A stretch of 64,000 nucleotides of DNA from Verrucomicrobiia bacterium (GTDB lineage Bacteria; Verrucomicrobiota; Verrucomicrobiia; Limisphaerales; UBA11358): the NCBI GenBank assembly GCA_036489615.1, contig DASXFM010000562.1, positions 4,002-68,001 on the forward strand, in the 5' to 3' direction. The position numbers and the translations under genes are program-made. Every line of letters begins with the position of its first letter. Within the stretch, counting starts at the first letter, position 1. Positions 3,815 to 44,030 of the stretch are shown piece by piece. The notes beneath the pieces were generated by a model. It was not told the origin of the DNA and searched no databases. It worked only from the letters and a program-made list of their open reading frames with translations.

Positions 3815-5203
3815 TTACCCCTTCGCTCCTTTGGCGAGTTCTACGCCCGGCCTGACGATGCCGAGTTTTTCCATTAATTCGTAAATTGTCGGCCGGCTTA
3901 AACCAAGTTCCGCCGCGGCAGGGGCAATTTTACCGGAGTATTTTCGCAACGCCTGCTGTATCAATTGCCGTTCGACTGCTTCACGGGCATCTTTGATGGT
4001 TACAGCGCCATTGATGTCAATGCCGCCCGCGTTGAGTTCCAGGTCTCGAGCGGTGACGCGCTTGCCTTCGGCGAGGATGACAGCGCGGCGGATGGAGTTT
4101 TCCAATTCGCGGACGTTTCCGGGCCAGGTATGTTTATTCAAGGCGCGCAAAGCGTCCGCGTCAAAAGCAAGGCTGGCTTTGCCGGCTTCGGTGGCGAACC
4201 GGTGAAGGAAGAATTTGGCCAGTAATAGAATGTCCTCTTCGCGCTCGCGCAACGGAGGCAATGAAATCTGCACCACGGCAAGCCGATAAAATAAGTCCTC
4301 TCGAAAGGCGCCGGAGGCCATATTCTTTTTTAAATCCGCGTTGGTGGCGGCAATCACCCGGACGTTCACATGGATTTCCTCGCGGCCGCCAACGCGTTCG
4401 ATCGTTTGGTCCTGCAAAAACCGGAGCAGTTTGACTTGCAGGGTAGGGGGCATCTCGCCGATTTCATCCAGGAACAATGTGCCGCCGTTCGCGACCTCGA
4501 TGCGTCCCTGGCGCTGGACGTGCGCGCCGGTGAAAGCGCCGCGTTCGTGTCCGAATAACTCGCTCTCCAAAAGGTTTTCGGGAATGGCGCCGCAGTTGAT
4601 GGCCACAAAAGGACCCTTTTGGCGGTCGCTCTTTCTATGGACGGCGCGGGCCACCATTTCTTTGCCTGTCCCGCTTTCGCCTAAAATCAGGACGGGGGCG
4701 TCTGTGGTCGCCACTTTGCGGATCATTTCAAAGACGGGCCGTATCCGGGCGCTGTTGCCGAGAATGCCTTCGAACGATTCACCGGCGCCGACCAGATTTT
4801 GCAGTTCGGCAAATTCTCTCTCCAATTGAGAGACGTGGAAGCAGCGCTTCAAGAGATGATTCAATTCGTCCATTTCGATGGGTTTGCACAGGAAGTCGTA
4901 GGCGCCGCCGCCGATGGCCCGAAGCGCAATTTCCTTTTCGTTTTGTCCGGTAATAACGATGACTTTGGCAAGCCGGTCCACCGCGAGGATATCCGACAAG
5001 GCGGCGAGACCTTCGGTCGGAGTGCCGGGATTCGGAGGCAGGCCGAGATCCAGGAGGACGCCGGATGGTCTTTCGTTGCGAAAGGTTTCGATCGCCGTGA
5101 GGCGATCTGAGGCGAGGACGACGTCGTAGTCGGTGGAGAGCGCCCATTTCATTTGGGCGCGAATTTCCTCGTCGTCGTCAACTATGAGCAATTTCGTATT
5201 CAT
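3815..5203 (-). CDS. prsR: sigma-54-dependent response regulator, PEP-CTERM-box type (PrsR-like)
   Basis: Receiver domain (LLIVDDDEEIR...DLGLPP), AAA+ sigma-54 activator core (GESGTGKE, GAFTGA loop region ERGAFTGA) and C-terminal HTH. The start is set at the internal ATG (5203, MNTKLLIVDDD). It overlaps the prsK stop by 26 nt. Confidence 0.85.
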   Translation of the reverse strand: MNTKLLIVDDDEEIRAQMKWALSTDYDVVLASDRLTAIETFRNERPSGVLLDLGLPPNPGTPTEGLAALSDILAVDRLAKVIVITGQNEKEIALRAIGGGAYDFLCKPIEMDELNHLLKRCFHVSQLEREFAELQNLVGAGESFEGILGNSARIRPVFEMIRKVATTDAPVLILGESGTGKEMVARAVHRKSDRQKGPFVAINCGAIPENLLESELFGHERGAFTGAHVQRQGRIEVANGGTLFLDEIGEMPPTLQVKLLRFLQDQTIERVGGREEIHVNVRVIAATNADLKKNMASGAFREDLFYRLAVVQISLPPLREREEDILLLAKFFLHRFATEAGKASLAFDADALRALNKHTWPGNVRELENSIRRAVILAEGKRVTARDLELNAGGIDINGAVTIKDAREAVERQLIQQALRKYSGKIAPAAAELGLSRPTIYELMEKLGIVRPGVELAKGAKG

Positions 5204-7301
5204 GGTTTTGATTGACGGGCAAAAAGACACGAAAGGTGGTGCCTTTGCCGGTTTCACTTTGGACTTCGATTTTGCCGCGATGCGCCTCGACGATCATCTT
5301 GCTTTGAAACATTCCGATGCCGAGGCCGTTCTTTTTTGTGGTTTGGAATGGACGGAACAGGGATCGATTCAGGAATTCGCTGTTCATGCCGCAGCCGTTG
5401 TCCGAGACGGAAAGCACGGCCCATCCATTGATCTGGCTCGTGGCCACGTGAATGGGTTCATCAACGGGGGACGCTTCCTGGGCGTTGAGCGCGAGGTTGG
5501 TCAGGACTTTGAGCAATTGTTCGCGATCAAAGAACAACTTCGGCAATGGTTGTAATTCTTTGACGAGATTGGCGCCGGAATTTTTTCCAAATTCGGTGAG
5601 AGACCTGGAGATCCAGTCGTTGAGGTCGCCTTCCGTGGGCGCGATTTTCAGCTCGTGCCGCAGGAGGGTCAGCCGGTGGATCAGGCGGTTGATATGAGTG
5701 ACGGATTTTGAGATGCCGCGCAAAGCGTCTTCCCGAAAGGCGGGATCGTCGAAGTGGACGGGCAAATTTTTAAGCATCAGGTTGAGCGTGGACGCAGCAT
5801 TTTTCAAATCATGAACGAAAAATGCGGACATGGTCTGGAAGGCCTCCAGTTCCTTCGCCTGCAATAGTTTTTTGGAGAGATGGGCATTCAGAAGGCTGGC
5901 GGCAATTTCATCGGCGACACATTTGAGCAGGTCGAGGTCCTGTCCTGAAAAGGAGACTCCGCCGATGCGGTCGCCCAGGATAATCAGGCCGAGCAAATTG
6001 CCGCCGACGGCCAGGGGCGCGCACACGCGGCGACCGCCCCTCGTAAATTCCGCGGGATGAATTTTCTTGAGGGTCGCGGCAGATTTTTCGCGGGAGAGAT
6101 CAATATCGAAGGGGGCGGATTTTTGCCTGAGCGCGGAGAGCAATTCGCGCACGTCGTCTTTGTCATGGTTTGATTCGCCGGCCCTGGGGCCCGGCAAAGA
6201 CGTTGAGGCGGCAAATTCGAGCTGCTCGCCGTTTTCGTCCACGAGCCAAATCGTAACGGACAACGTGTGAAAGATATTGGCGGTGAATTTGACGGTGGCA
6301 TGGGCCAATTCACCGGCGCTGACGCAGGAGGCGGTGCTTTCGGTAAATTTTCGCCACAGGTCGCGGTAATCATATTGCGGGCGTTGGAAATGACGGCTGA
6401 TAAAGCGGGCGGACCAAAGACGGACACGGTCTGAGAGCAGCAAAACAGTCAGCAATACGAGGGCGACGAGAACGAAGAAGGCCTTGGCTGCGAACGCATT
6501 GTCTCCGCCCAGGAAAGCGACGACATTGGCAAAAATGCCGATGACAAACAGGTAGATTCCCGTAAGCAGCGCGGTCAGGGAGTTTTGGAGGAGGGAATGC
6601 GATGGATAAATATCCACGTCAAAATGGCCGGTTCGAAACAAGGAACGTGAAATCAGCGCACAGGAGGCGAACAAGGCGACGCTATTGAGGATTTGCAATG
6701 GGAGATCCACGGCATGGAACAAGAGGGCCTGGCTGGCGCCGTAGCAACGGACGGCGAACAAGAGGCCTAACCCGACGATCATGAATTTGATTCGCCAACG
6801 CATCGTACCGACCGCTGAGCGAAATGTCCGTTCCAGGTTCATCAAGACCAAAACCGCGCCGGCGAGGAAAAGCAGGTTTAATGTTACGCCGGATTCCCGG
6901 AGCACGAAGATTCTGTGGCCGTTGGCCAAACGAACCCCTGAGATCAAATGGCTGTGAAGCAGCATTGCCAGCCCAATCGGAATCAAAAAGGCCGCTATTA
7001 GAATGAAGCGCCAACGGCGCAGAAAATCGCGATAATTTCCACGGCCGTAGCTCAGGCTGAAAAAGAGCCATGTTCCCGGAAGAAGGGACATAGCCACCAG
7101 GCGGCATTGTTCCCAAAAAACTTGTTCTTCGGGATAGCGGGCATCAATCGCGAGCCCGTTGAAAACGCTTTCTACCGAAAGCGCGAACATGCCGGTGGCA
7201 AACGAACGATGGGCCGTGCGGCGGCCGCGCCAGGCGACAGCAAACGCCAAAATCCCGCTGAAGAGTGCGGCAATAAAGGCGATGAGAGAAGTAATATCCA
7301 T
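5178..7301 (-). CDS. prsK: PEP-CTERM system sensor histidine kinase (PrsK-like)
   Basis: 707 aa. Polytopic N-terminal membrane region, GAF-like middle, HisKA (FFVHDLKNAAS) and HATPase_c (DNGCGM...GLGIGM). Directly upstream of and overlapping prsR. Confidence 0.85.
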   Translation of the reverse strand: MDITSLIAFIAALFSGILAFAVAWRGRRTAHRSFATGMFALSVESVFNGLAIDARYPEEQVFWEQCRLVAMSLLPGTWLFFSLSYGRGNYRDFLRRWRFILIAAFLIPIGLAMLLHSHLISGVRLANGHRIFVLRESGVTLNLLFLAGAVLVLMNLERTFRSAVGTMRWRIKFMIVGLGLLFAVRCYGASQALLFHAVDLPLQILNSVALFASCALISRSLFRTGHFDVDIYPSHSLLQNSLTALLTGIYLFVIGIFANVVAFLGGDNAFAAKAFFVLVALVLLTVLLLSDRVRLWSARFISRHFQRPQYDYRDLWRKFTESTASCVSAGELAHATVKFTANIFHTLSVTIWLVDENGEQLEFAASTSLPGPRAGESNHDKDDVRELLSALRQKSAPFDIDLSREKSAATLKKIHPAEFTRGGRRVCAPLAVGGNLLGLIILGDRIGGVSFSGQDLDLLKCVADEIAASLLNAHLSKKLLQAKELEAFQTMSAFFVHDLKNAASTLNLMLKNLPVHFDDPAFREDALRGISKSVTHINRLIHRLTLLRHELKIAPTEGDLNDWISRSLTEFGKNSGANLVKELQPLPKLFFDREQLLKVLTNLALNAQEASPVDEPIHVATSQINGWAVLSVSDNGCGMNSEFLNRSLFRPFQTTKKNGLGIGMFQSKMIVEAHRGKIEVQSETGKGTTFRVFLPVNQNHEYEIAHS

Positions 7302-7328
7302 ATGCCGTGAGAAATTCTATGGATGCGC

Positions 7329-7361
7329 AAAAAAAGAATTTTTGGGCGGAGAATTCCGCCC
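7329..7361 (-). terminator. intrinsic terminator-like hairpin downstream of the small PEP-CTERM gene
   Basis: GGGCGGA (7344-7350) pairs with TCCGCCC (7355-7361). A/T runs flank both sides; the minus-strand RNA reads hairpin then AAAAAUUCUUUUUUUGCG. Confidence 0.55.
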
Positions 7362-7389
7362 AAAAATCCTGTAACTGATGCCAGTTCGC

Positions 7390-7992
7390 TTAGGCGAACA
7401 TCTGTTTCTTCACCAGACCAAGTCCGAGAACGCCGAGTCCCAACAACATAGCAGTCGTGCCGCCATCCGGGACAGTCGAAGAGCCGATTGTTCCGTCAGC
7501 CACCTGGAACGAGAAGGTGCCATCCGCGCTTGGGTCGCCCGCGGCGAATTCCCAGGTCATCGCTTCCGGGCTCTGACCGTTACCCATGATCGCGCCGATC
7601 CCGGTCACGAGAACGCCGCCGACGGCCACGCCACCTTGTTCGGTGGTGCCTTGATACGCAATGTGTGATGAGGTCAGATCGAAGGTAAAGCCTCCGACAC
7701 TCCACAGGCTGGATACGGCTCCCGAGTTAAAGAACCACGGAGCGGTGAAATCCGCCGTTGTGCCAGGGGCAATTCCCGAAAAACTTCCGGAATCGCTGAT
7801 GACGATCGGCATTCCCGTTCCACCCGGACCGGTCCACGAAAGAACTTCCGTGGCTGTTGCAGCCGAAGATGAATCCAATGTAGCCCCGCCGGCGAACGTG
7901 ATGTCACCCGAGATTGGGAGCGCCTGAGCGATCCCGCCTGCCCCACAGACGGCCATTGCGACCGCCGACATTATTAACAATTTGCTTTTCAT
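7390..7992 (-). CDS. small secreted PEP-CTERM-domain protein (VPDGG variant of the sorting signal)
   Basis: 200 aa. N-terminal signal peptide MKSKLLIMSAVAMAVCGAGGIAQA and a Gly/Ser/Thr-rich body. The C-terminus is VPDGGTTAMLLGLGVLGLGLVKKQMFA: motif, hydrophobic helix, then basic residues. Confidence 0.85.
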   Translation of the reverse strand: MKSKLLIMSAVAMAVCGAGGIAQALPISGDITFAGGATLDSSSAATATEVLSWTGPGGTGMPIVISDSGSFSGIAPGTTADFTAPWFFNSGAVSSLWSVGGFTFDLTSSHIAYQGTTEQGGVAVGGVLVTGIGAIMGNGQSPEAMTWEFAAGDPSADGTFSFQVADGTIGSSTVPDGGTTAMLLGLGVLGLGLVKKQMFA

Positions 7993-8050
7993 ATTTTAAC
8001 TTTCCTTTTTGTTTCTCCTTGTATTTTGCAATCGTCAGTTTTTTACTTTA

Positions 8051-8065
8051 GCATCAGAAGTGCCA
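8051..8065 (-). promoter_or_regulatory. sigma-54 (-24/-12) promoter candidate for the PEP-CTERM gene
   Basis: The minus strand reads TGGCACTTCTGATGC. This is TGGCAC-N5-aTGC against the consensus TGGCAC-N5-TTGC, with GG and GC at canonical spacing. It lies about 60 nt upstream of the ATG at 7992 and next to the sigma-54 activator prsR. Confidence 0.6.
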
Positions 8066-8220
8066 TCGATTTTGTGCGGGAATTTCAGGGGATATAAGGG
8101 TCGAACCGTAAGTTTTTCCGACGCGTTTCACAAAGATTTTCATTTTCCCTTTGATTCCCGGTCAATCCGGTGATTCGGAATGTGTCAAATTGGCCGACGC
8201 TTTGTATCGTTGGAACCGGA

Positions 8221-11200
8221 TTAATGAAGTTCCGAGAGCGTTTGACGCGCGTCGACGGCTTCCTGGCCTGAAAGGTTCAAGCTTAACGCGTGTTGCAGCG
8301 ACGTTTTGGTTTCGATGTAGTTTTTTAGATGGTATTCACAAATGCCGAGGCAATAGAAGAGCCGGGCGTCAGAGCCTGCCGTATTGGAAATTGTATTAAA
8401 CAAGTTTGCGGCGCGGTCGTAATTACCCTGTTGAAATAGTACCATTGCCAGCGCCCGTGCCACCTGAGGATCGTCTGGAAACGCTTCGCGCGCCTTGATA
8501 GCGATGGGATAGGCCTTCACCGGGTCTACGAGATTTTGGGCATACAGGATGACCAGATTTTTACAGGCGGGGGCGCAATTGGGATGGCGCTCCAGCAAGC
8601 CTTCGTAGGCGCGTTCCGCGCCCACTGCATCGTTATTTTGGGAATCGACCAGGCCCTCCGCAAAGAGAGCAGCTGGATTGTTTGGGTCCGTACCCAGGGC
8701 ATTTTCAACGCGCGATTGATTCGCGGCTGCCGCATTCGGGTTTTCACACACGGTGATCATGTCCAGGAAATTTTTGGCCTGCGTGGACTGAAGGGAAGAG
8801 AGGCCTGCTTGCGAAGCGTTTTGCATGTCGGTCTGCGCTTCAGAAACTTTTCCCAGGCAGAAAGCGGCAGTCGCCAGATCAAAAAGGGTTTGGCCATTTG
8901 TTGGCTGGTCTTGTGACGCCTCATCAAGAAGGCTGAAGGCCAATTGATCGTTGCCCGTAACGGACGCCAGGTGCCCAAGTGTGGCGCAAACATTGGCGTC
9001 ATTTGGTCTGATCTGATAGGCGGTTTTAGCCAGGTCTAACGCCTTTTGAGGGTTTCCGGATTCATAAATCCGGGCGAGAATAATCATGGCTTTGACGTCT
9101 TTCGGATTTGCCTTCAGAGCTGTTTGGCAAAGTCCGATGACCTTGGCCCCATCGTTGGCACGTTGATAAATGGCGGCCAGCCGGGCGAATGCGACGGGAT
9201 CGTCCGGTTGTTCAGAAATTCTTTTTTCCAATTTTGAGCTTGCCGAGCTGTCAGCAGTGGCGGGGTCGATACTTAGAATGTCTAAATATTTCTGGCAATC
9301 GCTTCGATCAGGAAATGGCGCGTCCATCGTGGTCGCATTCTGAAGCTGCTGCTGCGCGGAATCCTCGTTATCGAGCATATACGAGGCGAGGCCAAGATGA
9401 TATTGCACCTCGGGATTGTTTGGCAATCCGGCGGCGCTTTGTTGAAACAAATTGAGCGCGGACGCGTAGTCGTTCCGCCTGAAGAGAATCCATCCAAGTG
9501 TATCGGCAGTGGACGGATCGTTTGGAAGCAGATGGTGGGCGCGTTGGGCGAGGGCGTAGGCCTTGTCCAGGTCGCCCAGGTGATCAGAGTAAAGGCACGC
9601 CAAATTATTGAGCACCGGACCGTATTGAGGACTGATGGCCAACACTTTTTCGTAGGTGGCTGCGGCGCCCGAAAAATCTTTTTGGTCGGTCTGGATCGAT
9701 GCCGCAAACATGAGGAGCGAGGGATCGTCCGGTTTCTTTGTGATGACTACATTGAGCATGTCGAGAGCGTCTTTGTCCTCCTTGAGGCTGAAATACAACT
9801 GTGCCAACAGTAAATTGGCCTCGAGACCGTCAGGAAGGGCGGCGGCCTTTGATAAGGCATCTTCCGCCTGATTGGTCTGGCCGCGGTCGAGAAAAATTTT
9901 CGCCAAAAGAATCTCCGGCTGGGCCTGCCGTGGGTTTTTTGAGACCAGGCTTTGCACGCGCTGCTGGGCCGCGTCATAATTTTTGTCCGTCAGGTCCAGT
10001 TGCGCCAGTTCCTCCTGGGCGCTAACGTTGGCGGGGTCCATTTGCAGGGCGCGGTTAAATTGCGAACGGGCCGCATCCTCGTTGAATTGCTGGATATAGG
10101 TCGAGCCGGCCAGGAGGGGGATATTGGGATTTGTCGGCGCGGATTTTTCAAGCTGTTGATAAACGGACTGTGCGTCGTTGAAATCATTTTGGAGCCGATA
10201 GACGTCGGCGAGGAGCAATCGTGGCTCGATGAGGTCTGGTTGGCTGGCGGTCAAGGGCTTTAGCAACCCGAGTGCGGACTCAACGTCGCCTTTCTTCACG
10301 TCAAGCTGTGCGAGCAGGAAAGCGGCCTGGGGAAAATTGGGCTGCAACTCTATGGTCTCATGCAATTGGTTCATAGCCTTGTCGTTTTTTCCGCCCATGA
10401 GGTATGCCAGGGCCAGTTCATAATGGATGCGGGGCGCCTGACGATAGGTTCCGACGAGATGTTCCAGTTCAGCAATCGCTTTGGTTGTATCCGAGCGCGC
10501 CATATCGAGCCTGGCATTGAGCACCTGCGCCTCAAGGTTTTCCGGGTCACCGGCGAGGACTTTTTTCAGCGCAAGATCGCAGTCGTCGAATTTCTTTTCG
10601 TCAAGCGCCACTTCAGCAAGGCCAAGCCAGGCGGGCATGTAACCGGGCGTTTTTTCGGCGAATCCTTTGAAAAATGTTTCGGCGGCGCCAAAATCGCCCA
10701 TCCCGATTTCGAATTGGCCGAATTCGGTTTGTAATGGAGAAGTGGTGTCTGCGCAATCGGAGGCGGCCTTGAACGCGTCGCCCGCCTTTTTCGGCTGGTT
10801 GAATTGCAAATAGGTGTTGCCCAGGGCGGCATAGGCTGCGGTGAAGCGCCGGTCGAGATTCAGGGCGCGCTGAAAATTCTCCAAAGCCGGCTTGAAATTG
10901 TTTTGCCGTGTGGCCACGACGCCCAAAGCGGTTTCGATGGCTGCGCTATCGCCATTTGCCGCGATCCCGCGCAGTTGTTTTTGCAGGTCTCCCAATTGCC
11001 CCAGGGGCATAGATTGGGCCAGCAGCACCGGGGCATCGTGGTCAGTGGGATCGTTTTTTAGCACAAAGTCCGCCTGCTCTGCGGCCTTCCTGGCGTCTCC
11101 GACGGCCAGGTAGATTTGGGCCAGTTTGACGCGCAGTTCCAGATTGCTTGAGGACAATTCGCTGCCTTTGAACAGGTAGGGCGCGGCCTTTTGGAAACGG

Positions 11201-11430
11201 CCCTCGTCAAAATAAATTATTCCGAGGCGTCCGATTGCCTTGGAATTTTGAGGGTCGCCATGGAGGGCGTTCATGTACTCGGCTTCGGCTTTATCAAACT
11301 GCCCGGAGTCGAAGAAGCGATCCGCCGCCTCAAGGTTGACATGCGTTTTTGCCCGCTCTGAGCATCCAGCGCCAATGAGCGCCATAAGGCAGGCAGCAGC
11401 GAGAATTGGAATGAGAGGATTCGTTTTCAT
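8221..11430 (-). CDS. prsT: PEP-CTERM system TPR-repeat lipoprotein (PrsT-like)
   Basis: 1069 aa. Lipoprotein signal MKTNPLIPILAAACLMALIGAGC followed by tandem TPR repeats throughout. Sits immediately downstream of the exosortase. Confidence 0.8.
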   Translation of the reverse strand: MKTNPLIPILAAACLMALIGAGCSERAKTHVNLEAADRFFDSGQFDKAEAEYMNALHGDPQNSKAIGRLGIIYFDEGRFQKAAPYLFKGSELSSSNLELRVKLAQIYLAVGDARKAAEQADFVLKNDPTDHDAPVLLAQSMPLGQLGDLQKQLRGIAANGDSAAIETALGVVATRQNNFKPALENFQRALNLDRRFTAAYAALGNTYLQFNQPKKAGDAFKAASDCADTTSPLQTEFGQFEIGMGDFGAAETFFKGFAEKTPGYMPAWLGLAEVALDEKKFDDCDLALKKVLAGDPENLEAQVLNARLDMARSDTTKAIAELEHLVGTYRQAPRIHYELALAYLMGGKNDKAMNQLHETIELQPNFPQAAFLLAQLDVKKGDVESALGLLKPLTASQPDLIEPRLLLADVYRLQNDFNDAQSVYQQLEKSAPTNPNIPLLAGSTYIQQFNEDAARSQFNRALQMDPANVSAQEELAQLDLTDKNYDAAQQRVQSLVSKNPRQAQPEILLAKIFLDRGQTNQAEDALSKAAALPDGLEANLLLAQLYFSLKEDKDALDMLNVVITKKPDDPSLLMFAASIQTDQKDFSGAAATYEKVLAISPQYGPVLNNLACLYSDHLGDLDKAYALAQRAHHLLPNDPSTADTLGWILFRRNDYASALNLFQQSAAGLPNNPEVQYHLGLASYMLDNEDSAQQQLQNATTMDAPFPDRSDCQKYLDILSIDPATADSSASSKLEKRISEQPDDPVAFARLAAIYQRANDGAKVIGLCQTALKANPKDVKAMIILARIYESGNPQKALDLAKTAYQIRPNDANVCATLGHLASVTGNDQLAFSLLDEASQDQPTNGQTLFDLATAAFCLGKVSEAQTDMQNASQAGLSSLQSTQAKNFLDMITVCENPNAAAANQSRVENALGTDPNNPAALFAEGLVDSQNNDAVGAERAYEGLLERHPNCAPACKNLVILYAQNLVDPVKAYPIAIKAREAFPDDPQVARALAMVLFQQGNYDRAANLFNTISNTAGSDARLFYCLGICEYHLKNYIETKTSLQHALSLNLSGQEAVDARQTLSELH

Positions 11431-11451
11431 AACAAAGATTTGGTTGATGGT

Positions 11452-12381
11452 TTACGGTTTTCCTTCTGTCTTTCTCAGGAAAATCAGGAGAAGAAAGAAG
11501 GGGATCAGTGACAAAACGAAGAAAAGGGGTCCTCCATGGTGATGAATCGGTGAGTTGATCATTTGCGGACCATACGCCATGCACAGGCGGCCAATGACAA
11601 AAATCCGGAAACCGTTCCGGATGAGCGCCAATGGAACGACGGCCAATACGAGCAGCGCGCGCTTCCAGGGCGAACGCAGAAATAGCCAACTGCCTACGAT
11701 GCTGACAATGGCCAGGACCACTGTGGAGTGTATTCCGCTGCATTCGGGCGCCACTCGTAAAACAATATTCGACAAATGAAAATACAGTCCGTCACGCACG
11801 ACGGCATCGCCGGCGATGCTAAAAAACAATCCTGCAAAGACGGCCGATCCGTGCTGCAACAACGTATCGATGCAATGGAGCAGGGCGGTCGGGAATGGAA
11901 TAGCAAAGACTAAGAGCGCCATGGGACACGCAAATGCGCGCATGAAGGCGCCACCTGGAAAAATGCAGCAAAGAGAGGCCAAAAATAGCAATAACGCGGA
12001 TATATTCCAGGCAAGGTAATCTTCGACGGGCATGACGGCGTCGCGCGTGAACAGCCAGAAGGCAGCCAGGATTAACAGGCCCGCGGAAAAGAACAGCGCG
12101 GCGGACTTGAAGGCCGGTTCAAAAGAGGCCGGCATTCTTTCGCGCCGTAACCAGACAAGATACAAGCTCAAGAAGGGAACCATTGGGAGGTCTGAATAGA
12201 GGTCATTGGTAACCGCCAGTCGGAGCAGGCGATAAAGCGGCGCGCTAAAAAGGAGCGCGAGCAATGCGATCCCGAGAAGAAATAACGCAAGCCTCGATTT
12301 ATTCGCTTTGCCGGAGGACTCCGGCGATTTCAAGGCGAAGCGATTCTTTTCCGATGCTAATTTTAGTTCATTAACAGGCAT
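11452..12381 (-). CDS. exosortase (EpsH/XrtA-like transpeptidase)
   Basis: 309 aa, polytopic. Family signature residues are present in order: Cys in APECSGIHS, Arg in LIRNGFRIF, His in PIHHHGGP. Confidence 0.9.
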   Translation of the reverse strand: MPVNELKLASEKNRFALKSPESSGKANKSRLALFLLGIALLALLFSAPLYRLLRLAVTNDLYSDLPMVPFLSLYLVWLRRERMPASFEPAFKSAALFFSAGLLILAAFWLFTRDAVMPVEDYLAWNISALLLFLASLCCIFPGGAFMRAFACPMALLVFAIPFPTALLHCIDTLLQHGSAVFAGLFFSIAGDAVVRDGLYFHLSNIVLRVAPECSGIHSTVVLAIVSIVGSWLFLRSPWKRALLVLAVVPLALIRNGFRIFVIGRLCMAYGPQMINSPIHHHGGPLFFVLSLIPFFLLLIFLRKTEGKP

Positions 12382-22418: not shown

Positions 22419-24203
22419 TTAGTCGCGAGGAAGGTCCCGAAACAGCAGGCGTTCGACAGCTGCAAGTGTCAGCACAGCGTTAATTTCGAGCGAATGATTC
22501 CTTCTTTTCTCAATGTGTTCGGCAGCCATGAGTTCCAGAAACCGGGGATCAAAAAAGTTGTCGAGACGATGTTTTGCGGCCGCCACGGTTTCACGGACAT
22601 AAGGTCCAAATTCATTTTGAAGCCAGCTGCGATAGTGCAGAAACTTGTGAAGCCCGACGAATCCAAGCCGGGTACTTGCGCTCTTCAGCAGCGGCTCGAA
22701 CGGAGCAAGAGCCCGGGGAAAACCTTCGTTATTATAGTAATCAAGTTTGAAGGTCACTTCAGCGAAAAGCCGGCGGGATAGGAATCCCAGACCGGAATTA
22801 GCGTTGGCAAAACCCCGGTCTGTGGGAATTTCGCATAACGCGGCATTGTTTGCGCTGACGACCCGCAGGGAGGGCATCGAGGAGTTTCGCGACGGGGCCG
22901 GCGCCTGAAATGCCAGAGCAACGAGTTCGTTATCCAAATAGGGCGTGCGAAATTGAAGCTGAGACCAGCCGGCAGACAGGTTTCCATACAGATTCCAGGG
23001 GATTTCCTTAAAAGCCGCAAAGGTCATCGGATGCGATTTTCCTGCCGACAGTCGCCCGGGGCGTGATTGTATAATTGGCCGCCAATTGGGCCTTAATAGC
23101 TGCGGTGAAAGATAAAGCGGCTTAAAGGTGGAAATGCCGCGCAAAATTTCGCTACCGTAATTTCCCGTTAATCGCACCGGCGCGAACTCCCTGGCTTTGC
23201 GATTAAAGTAGGTTTCATGCGCGTTGCAAACCCCGGCGCAACCGTCCGTGGCAAATACGGTTTTGTCCACGTGCTCCGGGAATTTCGAAAAGAAGTCCGG
23301 CTCCAACCGCAATAGACTGTGTTCCAGGTTTGACGCCGCGGCCACCCGGGCGGCGATTTTATCATCCTGTGTTTGGCCATTGTTGCCCGAGAATGTGTAG
23401 CAGGTCGTATGTCCATTGTTTTGCGGACGGCAGGCCATGATCATTCGCGTATCCAGCCCGCCGGTCAATGCGATGCCGGTCCTGGAGTCCGATTCGAAAT
23501 ATCGCGGCAAAATCCGCCTGAACGTTTCCGGAAGAAGCTTTTCGTATTCGTCGGTCCCGAGTTCGGAGCGCGATTCCCACATTTCAGGGGAAAAATATTT
23601 CCCCCTATGGCAACGTCCGCCCTCAAACGTCCAAACCGATCCGCCGGGAACAATTTCAATTCCGCGGAACAACGTCCTCCAATCCAGGGTGCTGCCAAAG
23701 GTGAGGTAGTCGGCGACACCTTCGGGGTCGAATTCGCGCAGTTCGGGCAAAATCCGCAGCAGCGCCTTGGCTTCGCTGGCAAAATAGAAGTTTCCGTCGC
23801 TTTCATGAAAATAAATGCGCCGCATTCCGTAACGGTCATTGAACAGGAGTACTTTCTTTCGGTCCTTGTCGATCAACACACCGCAGAAAAGCCCGTTGAG
23901 TTTTTCGAGCATTCCTTCGCCTTCCTGTTCGTACATCCGGGTCAATATTTCCCCGTTTGCGAGGGCGGTCCCGACAAAGCATTCGCCAGAGAATACGAGC
24001 ACAGTGGTCCCGCCCTGGTGTGAATAGATCCCATCAGTGGAATCTTTGAATCCGACAAAGGCGGCATGGGTTCCCATTTCAGACACGGAGCATGTTTGGG
24101 ATTTGTAAAAGTCTTCGTGGGTCATGGCTCCGACCATGGCAGCTATCCGGCGCGAAGACTGTTCAGCAGGCGATTGGCTGATGATCCCTAAGATTCCTGG
24201 CAT
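22419..24203 (-). CDS. asparagine synthase-family protein lacking the N-terminal nucleophile cysteine
   Basis: 594 aa. The verified ATG start gives MPGILGI, where AsnB enzymes have MCGI. The ATP-pyrophosphatase loop is retained as TGGLDT. Confidence 0.85.
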   Translation of the reverse strand: MPGILGIISQSPAEQSSRRIAAMVGAMTHEDFYKSQTCSVSEMGTHAAFVGFKDSTDGIYSHQGGTTVLVFSGECFVGTALANGEILTRMYEQEGEGMLEKLNGLFCGVLIDKDRKKVLLFNDRYGMRRIYFHESDGNFYFASEAKALLRILPELREFDPEGVADYLTFGSTLDWRTLFRGIEIVPGGSVWTFEGGRCHRGKYFSPEMWESRSELGTDEYEKLLPETFRRILPRYFESDSRTGIALTGGLDTRMIMACRPQNNGHTTCYTFSGNNGQTQDDKIAARVAAASNLEHSLLRLEPDFFSKFPEHVDKTVFATDGCAGVCNAHETYFNRKAREFAPVRLTGNYGSEILRGISTFKPLYLSPQLLRPNWRPIIQSRPGRLSAGKSHPMTFAAFKEIPWNLYGNLSAGWSQLQFRTPYLDNELVALAFQAPAPSRNSSMPSLRVVSANNAALCEIPTDRGFANANSGLGFLSRRLFAEVTFKLDYYNNEGFPRALAPFEPLLKSASTRLGFVGLHKFLHYRSWLQNEFGPYVRETVAAAKHRLDNFFDPRFLELMAAEHIEKRRNHSLEINAVLTLAAVERLLFRDLPRD

Positions 24204-24242
24204 AATGACTGGGTTTCTAGTGTGGTTTTGAGTTGGATAAAT

Positions 24243-24318
24243 TGGAGCCGGCGGGAGGAATTGAACGCTCCAGCCTGCTGATTACAGATCAGCCGCTCTA
24301 ACGTTGAGCTACACCGGC
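24243..24318 (-). tRNA. non-canonical tRNA-Thr(UGU)-like gene, copy 1 (CCA encoded)
   Basis: The minus strand folds as GCCGGUG-UA-GCUC-AACGUUA-GAGC-G-GCUGA-UCUGUAA-UCAGC-AGGCU-GGAG(C)G-UUCAAUU-CCUCC-CGCCGGC-U-CCA. It has a 7-bp acceptor stem, 4-bp D stem, 5-bp anticodon stem and a canonical UUCAAUU T loop. Deviations: no G18G19, C33, and a bulged C in the T stem. Confidence 0.7.
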
Positions 24319-24432
24319 GCAAAATTGAATTATGTCGCGATTTTCCGTATCTGTTTCGAGGCGCAACCGTTGTCTATTTCCTGGGGCAAATTTCCCGGGT
24401 TGGCCGTCATATTCATGATTGGTTGGATAAAT

Positions 24433-24508
24433 TGGAGCCGGCGGGAGGAATTGAACGCTCCAGCCTGCTGATTACAGATCAGCCGCTCTAACGTTGAGCT
24501 ACACCGGC
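24433..24508 (-). tRNA. non-canonical tRNA-Thr(UGU)-like gene, copy 2 (CCA encoded)
   Basis: 76/76 identical to copy 1 and exactly 190 bp away. Its 5' end lies 13 nt downstream of the stop codon of the FemAB-like GNAT gene. Confidence 0.7.
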
Positions 24509-24520
24509 GTAAAAATTGAA

Positions 24521-25519
24521 TTATGTCGCGCTTTCCCTTGCCTCATCCAGGGGCTTTGATGAAACCTTTGACCTTCTTTCGTTGAGCCAGCTTCTAGCGT
24601 TGACGGCTATATTCAAAACACGTGACGGCAACAGGCCGGTGGCACCCCGGTGCAGACGCAACGCCACGGCAATTTTCCCTTTCCATGTCAATGGCACATA
24701 ATAGCGGGGAAAATTGATTTGCTCGAAGCCGTTGCGGCGCTTGAGTTCTACCAATGAACTTTGGGTTTTGTTTCCGTAAGTATATTGGCCGTAGACCAGG
24801 TATCCGGCGTTCCTTTGCTCACAGACTTCGACGGCCTTGGCGATCAGCGCGTTGATCGGCCGTTTGTCATAATGCGCATTTGCTCCCAGGATGTGCAAAA
24901 TATGGGCCACGCGGTCCACATAGACGATTTTGATGAACCCAATGAGTTCATTTTCGAAAAAGGCCCCGATAAAATCGCTACGCTCCAAAAACGTTGAATG
25001 CTCGCGTTTGACCGTTTCGAAATCCTTGCCAAAGTGCCAAAAGGGTTTGCCCTGGCGGACCGGTGTTTCGTTGCAAAGATTGTGAATGCCGCGCGCCAAT
25101 TCATCGTTGAAGGGAACCAAATTGACCGTCACACCGCGCTTGGCGGAGCGGCGAACATTCTTTCGTGTTTCCTGCGGCAGGCGTTCCCACCATTCCTTAA
25201 ACGTGGTAATCGGAACCGTGGCAAAATTGTCCCATTCATAGTGAAATTTAAACTTTGGCGCCACGTCGGGCGGCCTCTGCGAGAACGTAAGAAAATCCGC
25301 TTTTAAGTTGCTCTGTTTTAATGCCCGCAGAAATGAGTCCGGACTCTTAACGATTTCGCCTTCGACAAAGTTCTGGTCCTGAATGGCCGCGGTTTTGAGC
25401 CATTTGCCGGTGACAATGACTGTCCGGCCGTCGATGACAGCCGATGGGACGAATGCCGTCTTTCCGCGAACGCGGATTTCGGCAACGCTGTTGGGAATTG
25501 AAATGGAATTTGCAGGCAT
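24521..25519 (-). CDS. FemAB-like GNAT (Acetyltransf_6-type) protein with a distinct ~100-aa N-terminal domain
   Basis: Motifs typical of Fem/aminoacyl-transferase-like GNATs: WWERLPQETRKNVRRSAKRGVTV and ILGANAHYDKRPINALIAKAVEVCEQRNAGYLVYG. The ATG at 25519 is preferred over the TTG at 25591. Confidence 0.8.
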   Translation of the reverse strand: MPANSISIPNSVAEIRVRGKTAFVPSAVIDGRTVIVTGKWLKTAAIQDQNFVEGEIVKSPDSFLRALKQSNLKADFLTFSQRPPDVAPKFKFHYEWDNFATVPITTFKEWWERLPQETRKNVRRSAKRGVTVNLVPFNDELARGIHNLCNETPVRQGKPFWHFGKDFETVKREHSTFLERSDFIGAFFENELIGFIKIVYVDRVAHILHILGANAHYDKRPINALIAKAVEVCEQRNAGYLVYGQYTYGNKTQSSLVELKRRNGFEQINFPRYYVPLTWKGKIAVALRLHRGATGLLPSRVLNIAVNARSWLNERRSKVSSKPLDEARESAT

Positions 25520-25523
25520 AGAA

Positions 25524-42917: not shown

Positions 42918-44030
42918 TTATGCCCAGTGCCGGTATAAAAATTCCCCCGCGATTCTTGAGGCTGGAAGCGGCAATGCCTTGAAGAGGCAGTTGTGCCAGC
43001 CGGAACCTTCATCCTGCATCGGAACAAAATTCATTTGCCGCAAACAAAATCGAAAATAGTCGATCGTCGTTTCTTCCGCGTTCCAGCCCAGTTTAAACCG
43101 CCGCAGGCCTTCGTTGCCGAGAGAAGTCCTCCCTAAATCCAGTTTCCGGATTCCATTTTTAGAAAACCAGGCGATCGCTTCGCGGAATACCAGGTTATTC
43201 CCCCGGAGATGCTGGTACGAATCGTCCGACGCGCCGAACTTATAGATGGCCTTGCTTCCCGAATGGAAAAATATCGCCCCTGCCACCGGGATTTTACCCC
43301 AGCGCGCCAAAACAACCATGCCCAGGCCAGCAGTGAACACGTGTTTTTGAATATTTTTGAAAAAGGAAAATGGCTGCGGAGGCAATCCATGCCGTCTCCG
43401 TGATTTGCAATGCAGCAGATAATACTGTTTTACCGCCGCCAAATCGGTGGAGATTTCCACACGCACTCCGCTTTTTTCAGCTTTCCGAACCGCGCGCCGC
43501 ACCGGACTCTTTAATTGTGCAAAAATCGCCTCTTCAGCCGCCGGTATTTCTATACAGTGCCCGTAAAACGAGAGCGAAGGCGCCATGCCGTTTAAAAAAG
43601 TTCGTCCACCGCGAAATTCCAAATATTTCCATCCGCGCGCCTGGGCCAATTCGACCGCATTTCGGAAGAGTTCCGAGAAATCGGCTCTGTCGGCGCAGAG
43701 AGGCTCGCAAGTGTCTGTAAAGGGCAGGGCGACCGCCCGCCTTCCGGTGAGGGTGCTATTTACTTCCATCAATGGCAGCACCGAGTGAACTGCGCCGGCC
43801 TCCTTGCTGACAAAATAAACCGGCTCAAATCCGTAAGTTTCTGCCAACGCCTTCGCCCACGCCGTGGTATGGAAAAAGGAACGGGCGGCGCAATTTTGCC
43901 CCGCAATTTGTTCGTCCCAGTCCGAATGTTCCAGCGGATTTGTCCACTGCACGCCTGTCCCGCGCGAAAAGTGTCGTTCGCGGGAAAACGGAATGCTCAC
44001 CGTGGAATGGATGGCGTTTTCAGATATCAC
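42918..44030 (-). CDS. FemAB-family protein, PEP-CTERM/exosortase-locus-associated type
   Basis: 370 aa with a GTG start. Two-lobed Fem-like layout: FFHTTAWAKALAETYGFEPVYF...RRAVRKAEKSGVRV...GASDDSYQHLRGNNLVFREAIAWF. Confidence 0.8.
   Translation of the reverse strand: MISENAIHSTVSIPFSRERHFSRGTGVQWTNPLEHSDWDEQIAGQNCAARSFFHTTAWAKALAETYGFEPVYFVSKEAGAVHSVLPLMEVNSTLTGRRAVALPFTDTCEPLCADRADFSELFRNAVELAQARGWKYLEFRGGRTFLNGMAPSLSFYGHCIEIPAAEEAIFAQLKSPVRRAVRKAEKSGVRVEISTDLAAVKQYYLLHCKSRRRHGLPPQPFSFFKNIQKHVFTAGLGMVVLARWGKIPVAGAIFFHSGSKAIYKFGASDDSYQHLRGNNLVFREAIAWFSKNGIRKLDLGRTSLGNEGLRRFKLGWNAEETTIDYFRFCLRQMNFVPMQDEGSGWHNCLFKALPLPASRIAGEFLYRHWA

Follow-up and report, generated by a model that had tools for sequence, protein, structure and literature searches.

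For some 50 years, private non-decoding transfer RNAs (tRNAs) serving Fem transferases have been a staphylococcal curiosity. Here we describe two identical tRNA-Thr(UGU)-type genes that probably, as judged from comparative sequence analysis and structure models, specify a dedicated, non-decoding aminoacyl donor for the Fem-like transferase encoded directly upstream of them. They lie in a 64,000-nt stretch of a Verrucomicrobiia bacterium genome (the window; assembly GCA_036489615.1, contig DASXFM010000562.1, positions 4,002 to 68,001), and window coordinates are counted from the first nucleotide of this stretch. The non-proteogenic tRNAGly of staphylococci (NP1-3) have altered D and T arms, show poor binding to EF-Tu·GTP as well as to ribosomes, are charged by the housekeeping synthetase, and are preferred by FmhB, FemA and FemB; according to a 2021 study, S. 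aureus and S. epidermidis were the only species in which non-proteogenic tRNAs had been detected (PMC7826273). The family to which the window genes belong resembles these RNAs in its altered G18G19 region and T arm, in its identity elements, and in its partner of Fem fold. It differs in the predicted amino acid, which is Thr and sometimes Gly as opposed to Gly only, in its hosts, which are Verrucomicrobiota and other Gram-negative phyla, and in its presumed target, which is exopolysaccharide (EPS) and not peptidoglycan. Its structural hallmark is a bulged T-stem pyrimidine, whereas the staphylococcal RNAs have weak 49-65, 50-64 and 51-63 pairs and a UGC/UGU T loop; moreover, the tRNA gene here lies inside the operon of its enzyme and the anticodon loop itself is degenerate.

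Several other systems share parts of this arrangement. The Fem-like Orf11 aminoacylates an amino sugar, and Sba18 and Sbb17, whose substrate is streptothrisamine and which like the window protein have a GNAT fold, use aminoacyl-tRNA to modify an amino group of a sugar-containing intermediate (PMC12945691). By comparison with the window protein, however, Sba18 and Sbb17 show 11-12% identity and a TM-score of ~0.55, belong to actinomycete antibiotic pathways, and draw on housekeeping Gly-tRNA. The C-terminal domain of MprF, the L-PGS and A-PGS proteins, and fungal ErdS also have the tandem-GNAT (DUF2156) fold and aminoacylate non-protein acceptors from aminoacyl-tRNA, but their acceptors are lipids and they have no dedicated tRNA gene; in ErdS, the tRNA is made private through fusion to AspRS. 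ErdS is reported to hold a tRNA "like a prosthetic swinging arm" (PMC13219428), an idea related to that of a private tRNA. Neither the term "dedicated" nor the term "tRNA gene" appears in a 2026 review on enzymes that depend on aminoacyl-tRNA (PMC12945691). Metagenome mining has yielded allo-tRNAs and tRNASec-like species, among them minor tRNASec-like forms with a T-stem bulged A51a (PMC5389517). Those irregular tRNAs have 8/4 or 9/3 branches and long variable arms, are discussed as decoders, and are presented in a paper silent on polysaccharide or Fem contexts (PMC5389517), whereas the family described here is 7/5 plus a bulge, class I, and tied to one enzyme gene. Our full-text literature search returned no description of this pairing of a Fem-like enzyme with a tRNA, in agreement with a preliminary description of the window, which had regarded dedicated donor tRNAs as undescribed for exosortase systems.

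Results

Two identical, deviant tRNA genes in an exopolysaccharide operon

Both tRNA genes lie on the minus strand, the strand of the operon. Copy 2, which is proximal to the Fem-like gene, occupies positions 24433-24508, and copy 1, which is distal and has the same sequence, positions 24243-24318. Each is 76 nt long with an encoded CCA, the two are 100% identical, and both are typed as tRNA-Thr(UGU) by ARAGORN, which finds these two tRNAs and no others in the window. Against the Rfam tRNA model RF00005, whose gathering score is 29, each copy reaches 54 bits (E = 8e-9) over model positions 1-71, and copy 2 scores 96.8 bits against the family covariance model. ARAGORN and Rfam recover the pair of tRNA genes that the preliminary description had read on the operon strand and had proposed to check with a tRNA finder.

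A repeat search together with inspection of the sequence places both copies in a direct tandem duplication (24232-24537, minus strand) with a spacing of ~190 nt, consisting of 93 nt at 99% identity and 26 nt at 92%. Each duplicated unit runs from the final codons and stop (TAA) of the Fem-like open reading frame (ORF) through 12 nt of spacer and the tRNA to a trailer of 11 nt, and ~100 nt of unique spacer separate the two repeated segments. From the end of copy 1 to the AsnB-like ATG it is 39 nt, as originally reported, whereas the distance from the Fem-like TAA to copy 2 is 12 nt and not the 13 nt first given. On the operon strand, no promoter- or terminator-like site was found in the interval between the Fem-like and AsnB-like genes with a sigma-70 consensus; this negative is weak, and the consensus may not suit the phylum. 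Further tandem copies of such tRNAs were seen in two of the homologous loci examined below, L040 (7000-7075 and 7163-7238) and L200 (a pair ~1 kb apart). The independent duplications in L040, L200 and the window suggest recurrent selection for dosage.

Canonical elongator features (G18G19, U33 and an uninterrupted 5-bp T stem) are missing from both window copies. The D loop, AACGUUA, lacks G18G19; the anticodon loop, U-C-U-G-U-A-A, keeps 7 nt and the canonical purine at 37 (A37) but has C33; and in the T stem, the Rfam alignment places an inserted C between pairs 52-62 and 53-61. At the same time, the tRNA has G1-C72, C2-G71, G35, U36 and U73. The three deviations, the encoded CCA, and the retention of G1-C72, C2-G71, G35 and U36 had all been noted in the preliminary description and are borne out here.

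The deviant cloverleaf is conserved across the family

Single-sequence minimum-free-energy folding of the tRNA returned no cloverleaf, and the structure rests instead on the covariance model and on covariation. We examined 31 diverse family members, with register-shifted pairings as controls. In the cloverleaf including the bulge, 99.2% of cells are paired and the slid controls are all far lower; compensatory changes occur at 10 pairs, three of which are T-stem pairs around the bulge. The covariation that had been proposed as a check thus indicates that the deviant cloverleaf is maintained.

Loop and elbow statistics were compiled from 117 unique sequences of the tRNA family. The metagenomic members were chosen by a fixed T arm and 3' acceptor strand, so that conservation of these parts is unbiased only in the genome set; with this reservation, the bulge is present in all family members and is always a pyrimidine (U in 75, C in 42), CCA is encoded in 99 of the 117, and the acceptor stem is nearly invariant. 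The D-loop GG is absent from 98 of the 117 sequences and is still kept by some basal members (L047, L049 and L050), suggesting that the family gradually departed from a canonical tRNA-Thr. At position 56, nine sequences have U in place of C, the partner of G19. A T loop of UUUAAUU was seen in L001, L002, L006, L007, L010, L013 and L018, where G19 is also lost; with U in place of the near-universal C56 and G19 missing, neither member of the 19-56 elbow pair remains.

Two damaged relatives of the tRNA were also seen. One, at 7330-7404 of L043, is a decayed family member in which the loop reads CCC, the T arm is damaged, and the 3' strand of the acceptor has lost its pairing; the other, in L091 (~2000-2025 in the tRNA-oriented copy), consists of the 3' half of a tRNA joined to a Fem-like ORF that is disrupted.

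The tRNA and the Fem-like gene are linked in both directions

Linkage was examined in both directions. Starting from the Fem-like protein, a scan that took one genome for each species gave 80 loci with relatives at 39-77% identity. According to ARAGORN, Rfam and the family covariance model, a same-strand family tRNA lies directly downstream of the Fem-like gene in 43 of these 80 loci, including nearly all of those with at least 50% protein identity. The median distance is 36 nt from the Fem-like stop to the tRNA and 43 nt from the tRNA to the AsnB-like start. The tRNA and the 3' end of the ORF overlap in 10 loci (including L019, L023-L027, L029 and L030), where the tRNA 5' part covers the last 10-44 nt of the ORF, the ORF ends there being mechanical extensions to the stop codon; tRNA excision would then cut within the coding region or the stop. 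Of the 80 loci, 60, tRNA-less ones included, have an AsnB-like gene after the Fem-like gene. The carriers are labelled Verrucomicrobiia/Limisphaerales, Ca. Udaeobacter, Nitrospirae, Vicinamibacterales/Luteitalea, Methyloglobulus, Rubrivivax and others. Several labels of the metagenome-assembled genomes (MAGs) are implausible, as at L010 and L018: "uncultured Bifidobacteriaceae" or "Pseudomonadales", for example, stands on loci with 63-69% identity to Verrucomicrobia ones.

For the reverse direction, metagenomes were scanned with a 26-nt pattern of the T arm and 3' acceptor strand, which gave at least 120 loci. Among the matches listed, 108 were informative in having at least 300 nt upstream of the tRNA, and in 104 of these 108 a Fem-like gene ends just upstream. 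In the four exceptions (L098, L136, L177 and L091), a Fem-like gene is within ~1 kb or present as a truncated remnant. L098 and L136 have a methyltransferase-like ORF inserted between the Fem-like gene and the tRNA, and in L177 (~1527-1604) the Fem-like gene is just downstream of the tRNA. The tRNA of L177 also lies downstream of a second ORF, guessed to be GNAT-like from its sequence alone. In the 1.6 Mb of DNA fetched, ARAGORN called 160 tRNAs, of which 156 belong to this family, the other four are likewise aberrant, and none is ordinary. As far as sampled, the tRNA family is never found away from a Fem-like gene. In total, the pairing of enzyme and tRNA occurs in ~150 loci of uncultured soil and freshwater bacteria across the genome and metagenome sets, the metagenome part being counted among the matches listed. 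Orthologous loci thus retain the synteny with Fem-like genes that the preliminary description had made a test of its proposal, and by this near-obligate two-way linkage the tRNA is coupled genetically to the Fem-type transferase.

Within the anticodon loop, only positions 35 and 36 are constrained

In the same 117 sequences, position 32 is A in 74, U in 27, C in 9 and G in 4, while position 33 is U in 91, C in 15 and A in 8, U33 being absent in 23 of 114. Position 34 is U in 59, C in 41 and A in 14. At position 35, G is found in 106 and C in 6 (2 extra U are mis-parsed loops), and at position 36, U in 108 and C in 6. Position 37 is a pyrimidine in 12 sequences, and a few family members have an 8-nt anticodon loop. 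One backbone therefore carries the anticodons UGU, CGU, AGU, UCC and ACC; constraint within the loop is limited to positions 35/36, which are GU or, in six sequences, concertedly CC, and positions 32, 33, 34, 37 and 38 drift. Among anticodon nucleotides, ThrRS identity is set by GU and GlyRS identity by CC at 35/36, and U73 together with G1-C72 is compatible with bacterial Gly identity (PMC9976931). In the Gly-type tRNA of L034, pair 3-70 has also changed, to G3-C70. The Gly type is polyphyletic, its partners falling into at least 3-4 separate branches of the protein tree. Constraint on 35/36 alone fits selection for charging and not for decoding, and by these positions, judged in silico, the family tRNA keeps synthetase identity elements as a non-proteogenic donor tRNA does. 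C33 is common to the closest relatives of the window locus, L001-L005 (77-72% protein identity), and L006-L009 have U33; C33 is thus a stably tolerated state.

The partner is a predicted aminoacyl-tRNA-dependent transferase

The Fem-like gene (24521-25519, minus strand) encodes a tandem-GNAT protein of 332 aa, which is predicted from the fold matches of its AlphaFold model to be an aminoacyl-tRNA-dependent transferase. A Verrucomicrobiae MAG encodes a hypothetical protein of the same sequence (100% identity), and none of the more than 5,800 homologs is named. The ORF (24521-25591) has no NCBIfam match at E <= 1e-5, and its assignment to the PEP-CTERM FemAB family TIGR03019 was rejected on that ground; the protein has no Pfam match at E <= 0.01. 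The AlphaFold model, which was built with 34 homologs, has a pLDDT of 80.4 and a pTM of 0.75. Its top 19 fold matches in the PDB are all aminoacyl-tRNA-dependent enzymes (E 1e-11 to 1e-8), with Sba18/Sbb17 at E ~1e-11, Weissella FemX at ~1e-10, and L-PGS/A-PGS/MprF at ~1e-9, and the acetyl-CoA-dependent tandem GNATs rank below them. Among 74 family representatives, weak Pfam matches were obtained to Acetyltransf_6 (PF13480) in 32 (best 5.5e-10), to FemAB (PF02388) in 22 (best 2.7e-7), and to LPG_synthase_C (PF09924) in 4. A family-profile hmmsearch of the PDB sequences found generic single-domain GNATs only. F259-K260, in the segment EFKRRNGF, is nearly invariant across the Fem-like family; it resembles the Phe-Lys catalytic motif of Fem enzymes and may correspond to it. 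The C-terminal helix of the protein, residues 299-320, is basic. The fold and the weak Pfam matches of relatives thus justify the label "FemAB-like GNAT" of the preliminary description at the level of the superfamily, whereas no sequence model matches the protein itself.

A second FemAB-family gene lies at 42918-44030 (minus strand). It is TIGR03019-like (129 bits against a cutoff of 260; PF13480 at 1.2e-16, PF02388 at 6e-11). The EPS locus therefore encodes two different Fem-type enzymes. In the TIGR03019 family, as here, a Fem-related gene accompanies AsnB-type amidotransferases in exosortase-linked EPS loci; in the window, however, the TIGR03019-like gene has no adjacent tRNA, and the tRNA-linked protein is the one unmatched by that model.

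Other tRNA-like elements occur in the same slot

In a few loci, the position of the tRNA is taken by elements of other types, among them Ser- or Leu-like forms in which a GNRA-type tetraloop stands in for the anticodon loop. A Leu-like class II tRNA-like with an 8-bp anticodon arm capped by GAAA lies at 7114-7202 of L043; a Ser-like class II element with an 8-bp arm capped by GAAA at 8069-8160 of L076; another Ser-like class II element with an 8-bp arm and a GCAA cap at 3070-3163 of L169; and a D-arm-less Ser-like version with a UGAA cap at 4332-4417 of L179, the last two coordinates referring to the reverse complement of the stored locus. The 8-bp arms were obtained with RNAfold for L043, L076 and L169, and the arm of L179 was read by eye. 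ARAGORN calls three of these four tetraloop elements, a custom acceptor/T-arm scan finds all four, and Rfam recognizes them weakly or not at all. As read from the sequences, the acceptor/T-arm helix of each carries an additional nucleotide on the 3' side. Several of the elements immediately precede the Cys-less AsnB-like gene. L046 has a Val-like tRNA with an odd loop. The presence in L043 of the decayed family tRNA beside the Leu-like element looks like donor replacement.

LeuRS does not read the anticodon of its tRNAs. Likewise, SerRS makes no use of the anticodon (PMC9976931). The Ser- and Leu-like forms could therefore be charged although they cannot decode, and, as a lead, the tetraloop elements are possibly chargeable, anticodon-less tRNAs.

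AsnB-type genes and the exosortase-type locus

On the other side of the tRNAs, the gene at 22419-24203 (minus strand) encodes a protein of 594 aa with weak matches to TIGR01536 (108 bits against a cutoff of 267) and to AsnB in the PDB (E ~1e-6). Its N-terminus, MPGILG, has Pro in place of Cys, and a PP-loop-like motif, TGGLDT, is kept. The product is thus predicted to be an AsnB-fold adenylating enzyme without glutaminase chemistry. A full-length glutamine-dependent AsnB-type amidotransferase is encoded at 25524-27428 (minus strand; TIGR03108 471 bits, TIGR01536 436 bits, and Pfam matches); its likely start, MCGICG, is at 27428, the mechanical ORF reaching 27482, and it ends 4 nt ahead of the Fem-like start. 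Comparison of MPGILG with the MCGICG of this upstream protein agrees with the earlier designation of the 22419-24203 product as a Cys-less AsnB paralog. The full-length AsnB gene is kept upstream of the Fem-like gene in 56 of the 80 loci.

Positions ~3.8-49 kb of the window form an exosortase-type EPS locus with many glycosyltransferases, an ABC exporter, a Wzy-like protein, a Wzc-like kinase, a priming transferase, and an EPS export protein. At 3815-12381 (minus strand), NCBIfam and Pfam identify the response regulator PrsR, the kinase PrsK, a VPDSG-CTERM protein, the TPR protein PrsT and an XrtC-like exosortase (TIGR02915 608, TIGR02916 390, TIGR02917 381 and TIGR04151 268 bits); the exosortase has its best match in TIGR04151, and a 200-aa protein ends in the VPDSG-CTERM motif (PF18205). 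These matches corroborate the exosortase/EPS context that had been assigned to the genes, and the system looks like the VPDSG-CTERM/XrtC type and not XrtA. Upstream of the block of AsnB, Fem-like, tRNA and AsnB-like genes lie an ATP-grasp-like gene (28713-29978, minus strand) and a weakly alginate-lyase-like gene (27403-28677, minus strand), of which the latter is co-conserved in 45 of the 80 loci and the former is not.

Discussion

Altogether, the fold, the two-way synteny, the covariation, and the pattern of the anticodon loop support the proposal of the preliminary description that the two genes specify a non-ribosomal donor tRNA. We infer expression, charging, avoidance of EF-Tu and the ribosome, use by the enzyme, the acceptor, and the role of the AsnB-like protein as follows. 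The mRNA of the EPS operon would include the tRNA, which the normal tRNA-processing enzymes would excise. Housekeeping ThrRS would charge it with threonine by way of G1-C72, C2-G71, G35 and U36, and in lineages with C35 C36, GlyRS would do so instead. EF-Tu and the ribosome would be avoided through the T-stem bulge, the lost G19 (and sometimes C56), and the relaxed anticodon loop, with C33 in the window. EF-Tu is known to read the T stem (PMC3239215, PMC7826273). The Fem-like enzyme would then move the aminoacyl group to an amine of an EPS precursor, most plausibly an amino sugar, while the Cys-less AsnB-like enzyme would adenylate a carboxylate and form a coupled second amide; that it acts on the same residue as the Fem-like enzyme is speculation. 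Because the enzymes structurally closest to the Fem-like protein acylate amino-sugar amines and the locus is a polysaccharide locus, a Thr- or Gly-modified amino sugar of the EPS is our leading guess for the product.

Several observations weigh against this model. The best Pfam match of the Fem-like protein is Acetyltransf_1 at E = 0.018, and the fold matches have TM-scores of only ~0.5 and sequence identities of 11-12%. An hhalign comparison of the family profile with the TIGR03019-like protein of the window was insignificant (probability 2.6%), probably because the target is a single sequence. Searching for a protein residue that tracks Thr- versus Gly-type tRNA, we found none. Furthermore, 36 of the 80 loci carry no tRNA, ~34 of them without a contig end as explanation (the contigs of L014 and L051 end directly after the Fem-like gene). 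Of the tRNA-less loci, 20 have an AsnB-like gene, which in 15 of them abuts the Fem-like gene (gap 0-43 nt), so that the absence is real. Searches for hidden tRNAs recovered little: the Rfam gathering threshold applied to 14 tRNA-less loci gave one (L033), and relaxed ARAGORN on the tRNA-less loci gave none further. The family covariance model run on the 80 loci gave no new intact member, its extra hits being the decayed L043 copy and, weakly, the Val-like tRNA of L046, and the custom scan of tRNA-less loci gave only the third Ser-like element, that of L179. A private tRNA is therefore not a requirement of the enzyme family. What is conserved more deeply is the pair of Fem-like and AsnB-like genes, into which the tRNA has been inserted in one large clade and sporadically elsewhere.

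The position of the tRNA after gene insertions is a further point of this kind, and it bears on an alternative in which the tRNA primarily serves, as substrate or cofactor, the Cys-less AsnB-like enzyme or a Fem-like/AsnB-like pair that works on a single tRNA-bound intermediate. A possible route would have the AsnB-like enzyme couple a carboxylate that it has adenylated to the alpha-amine of Thr-tRNA, after which the Fem-like enzyme would transfer the N-acylated residue. In the 60 loci in which the AsnB-like gene follows the Fem-like gene, the place of the tRNA is between the two; in L010, L011 and L013, the tRNA lies ~22 nt before the AsnB-like start and 400-900 nt past the Fem-like stop; and in L076, L098, L136 and L179, an inserted gene parts the Fem-like gene from a tRNA or tRNA-like directly preceding the AsnB-like gene. 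Since the tRNA stays by the AsnB-like gene in these seven loci, its primary user could be the AsnB-like enzyme or the pair. In L023, L027, L030, L031, L033 and L047, on the other hand, the AsnB-like gene is 1-3 kb off and the tRNA stays by the Fem-like gene. Moreover, Fem/aaPGS-type folds are established users of aminoacyl-tRNA, whereas we know of no AsnB-family enzyme that uses tRNA, and we therefore regard this alternative as unlikely.

The tRNA-shaped element might instead punctuate the mRNA between the Fem-like and AsnB-like cistrons, where cleavage by RNase P and 3' processing would set stability or stoichiometry. This would account for the 12-nt and 39-nt spacers with no flanking promoter- or terminator-like site on the operon strand, for the constant location of the element between the same two cistrons, and for the existence of anticodon-less variants. 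However, a processing signal needs neither G35 U36 or C35 C36, nor U73, a near-invariant acceptor stem or the CCA found in 99 of the 117 sequences, yet all of these are conserved; the concerted switches from GU to CC fit the identity sets of aminoacyl-tRNA synthetases, and many homologous operons function without such an element. We consider a pure processing role quite improbable.

An ordinary decoding tRNA-Thr, either as an extra copy for Thr-rich exosortase substrates or as the reader of ACA in this genome, would explain the bona fide tRNA score, the normal T loop, the 7-nt anticodon loop and the A37 of the window copies, as well as the 82 ACA codons in the operon genes of the window. Against this stand the T-stem bulge of every member, the absence of GG from 98 of the 117 sequences, C33 or A33 in 23 and a pyrimidine at 37 in 12, the occasional 8-nt loops, and the flips between UGU, CGU, AGU, UCC and ACC on one backbone. 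The tRNA is also strictly tied to one accessory gene across phyla, and its backbone accompanies the module into lineages that bear the labels Acidobacteriota, Nitrospirota and Proteobacteria. ACA codons are still used in genes adjoining CGU- or Gly-type tRNAs of the module, and this use despite a CGU-, AGU- or Gly-type module tRNA indicates that those relatives have another ACA reader. A decoding role is thus very improbable. Finally, a decaying relic or pseudogene, such as a former integration-site tRNA trapped in the operon, is barely credible: decayed copies do exist in L043 (7330-7404) and L091, but 99.2% of stem positions are paired with compensatory changes, ~150 loci conserve the element, recent identical copies occur in the window and independent ones in L040 and L200, and the integration-site or island idea was rejected because family searches revealed no integrase among the window neighbours and the tRNAs lie 12 nt and 39 nt from co-directional genes.

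We therefore retain the reading of the two genes as a dedicated donor tRNA for the Fem-like transferase. Relative to staphylococci, the phyla, the amino acid, the probable class of acceptor, the structural hallmark and the operon-embedded tRNA gene would all be different, and the anticodon-less tRNA-likes are possibly a step beyond a new variant of donor tRNA. It is tempting to speculate further that the Fem-like transferase, the private tRNA and the Cys-less AsnB-like ligase form a widespread three-part module that has repeatedly recruited and re-engineered translation-insulated carriers, including the tetraloop Ser- and Leu-like forms, and that adds single amino-acid substituents or bridges to exosortase-associated EPS; in such a module, amide formation with an amino sugar would fall to the Fem-like enzyme, and ligation to a uronic-acid carboxylate to the AsnB-like enzyme. 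We offer this extension tentatively and regard it as doubtful. If true, it would describe a glycan counterpart of the cross-bridges of peptidoglycan.

If the reading as a dedicated donor tRNA is correct, the private-tRNA principle would be general, having arisen independently in Gram-negative phyla with another amino acid and probably with a glycan as target. The family would then constitute a natural experiment on how far the T-stem bulge, G19/C56, position 33 and the whole anticodon loop can be altered while charging identity is kept, with a bearing on EF-Tu partitioning and on the design of orthogonal tRNAs. The ~150 calls of "tRNA-Thr" or "tRNA-Gly" in MAGs would probably be non-decoders, which would affect estimates of tRNA complements and of completeness. 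For the more than 5,800 relatives of this unannotated protein family, the linked tRNA provides a functional lead, and it may likewise help to account for the long-unexplained pairs of Fem-like and AsnB-like genes in exosortase EPS loci.

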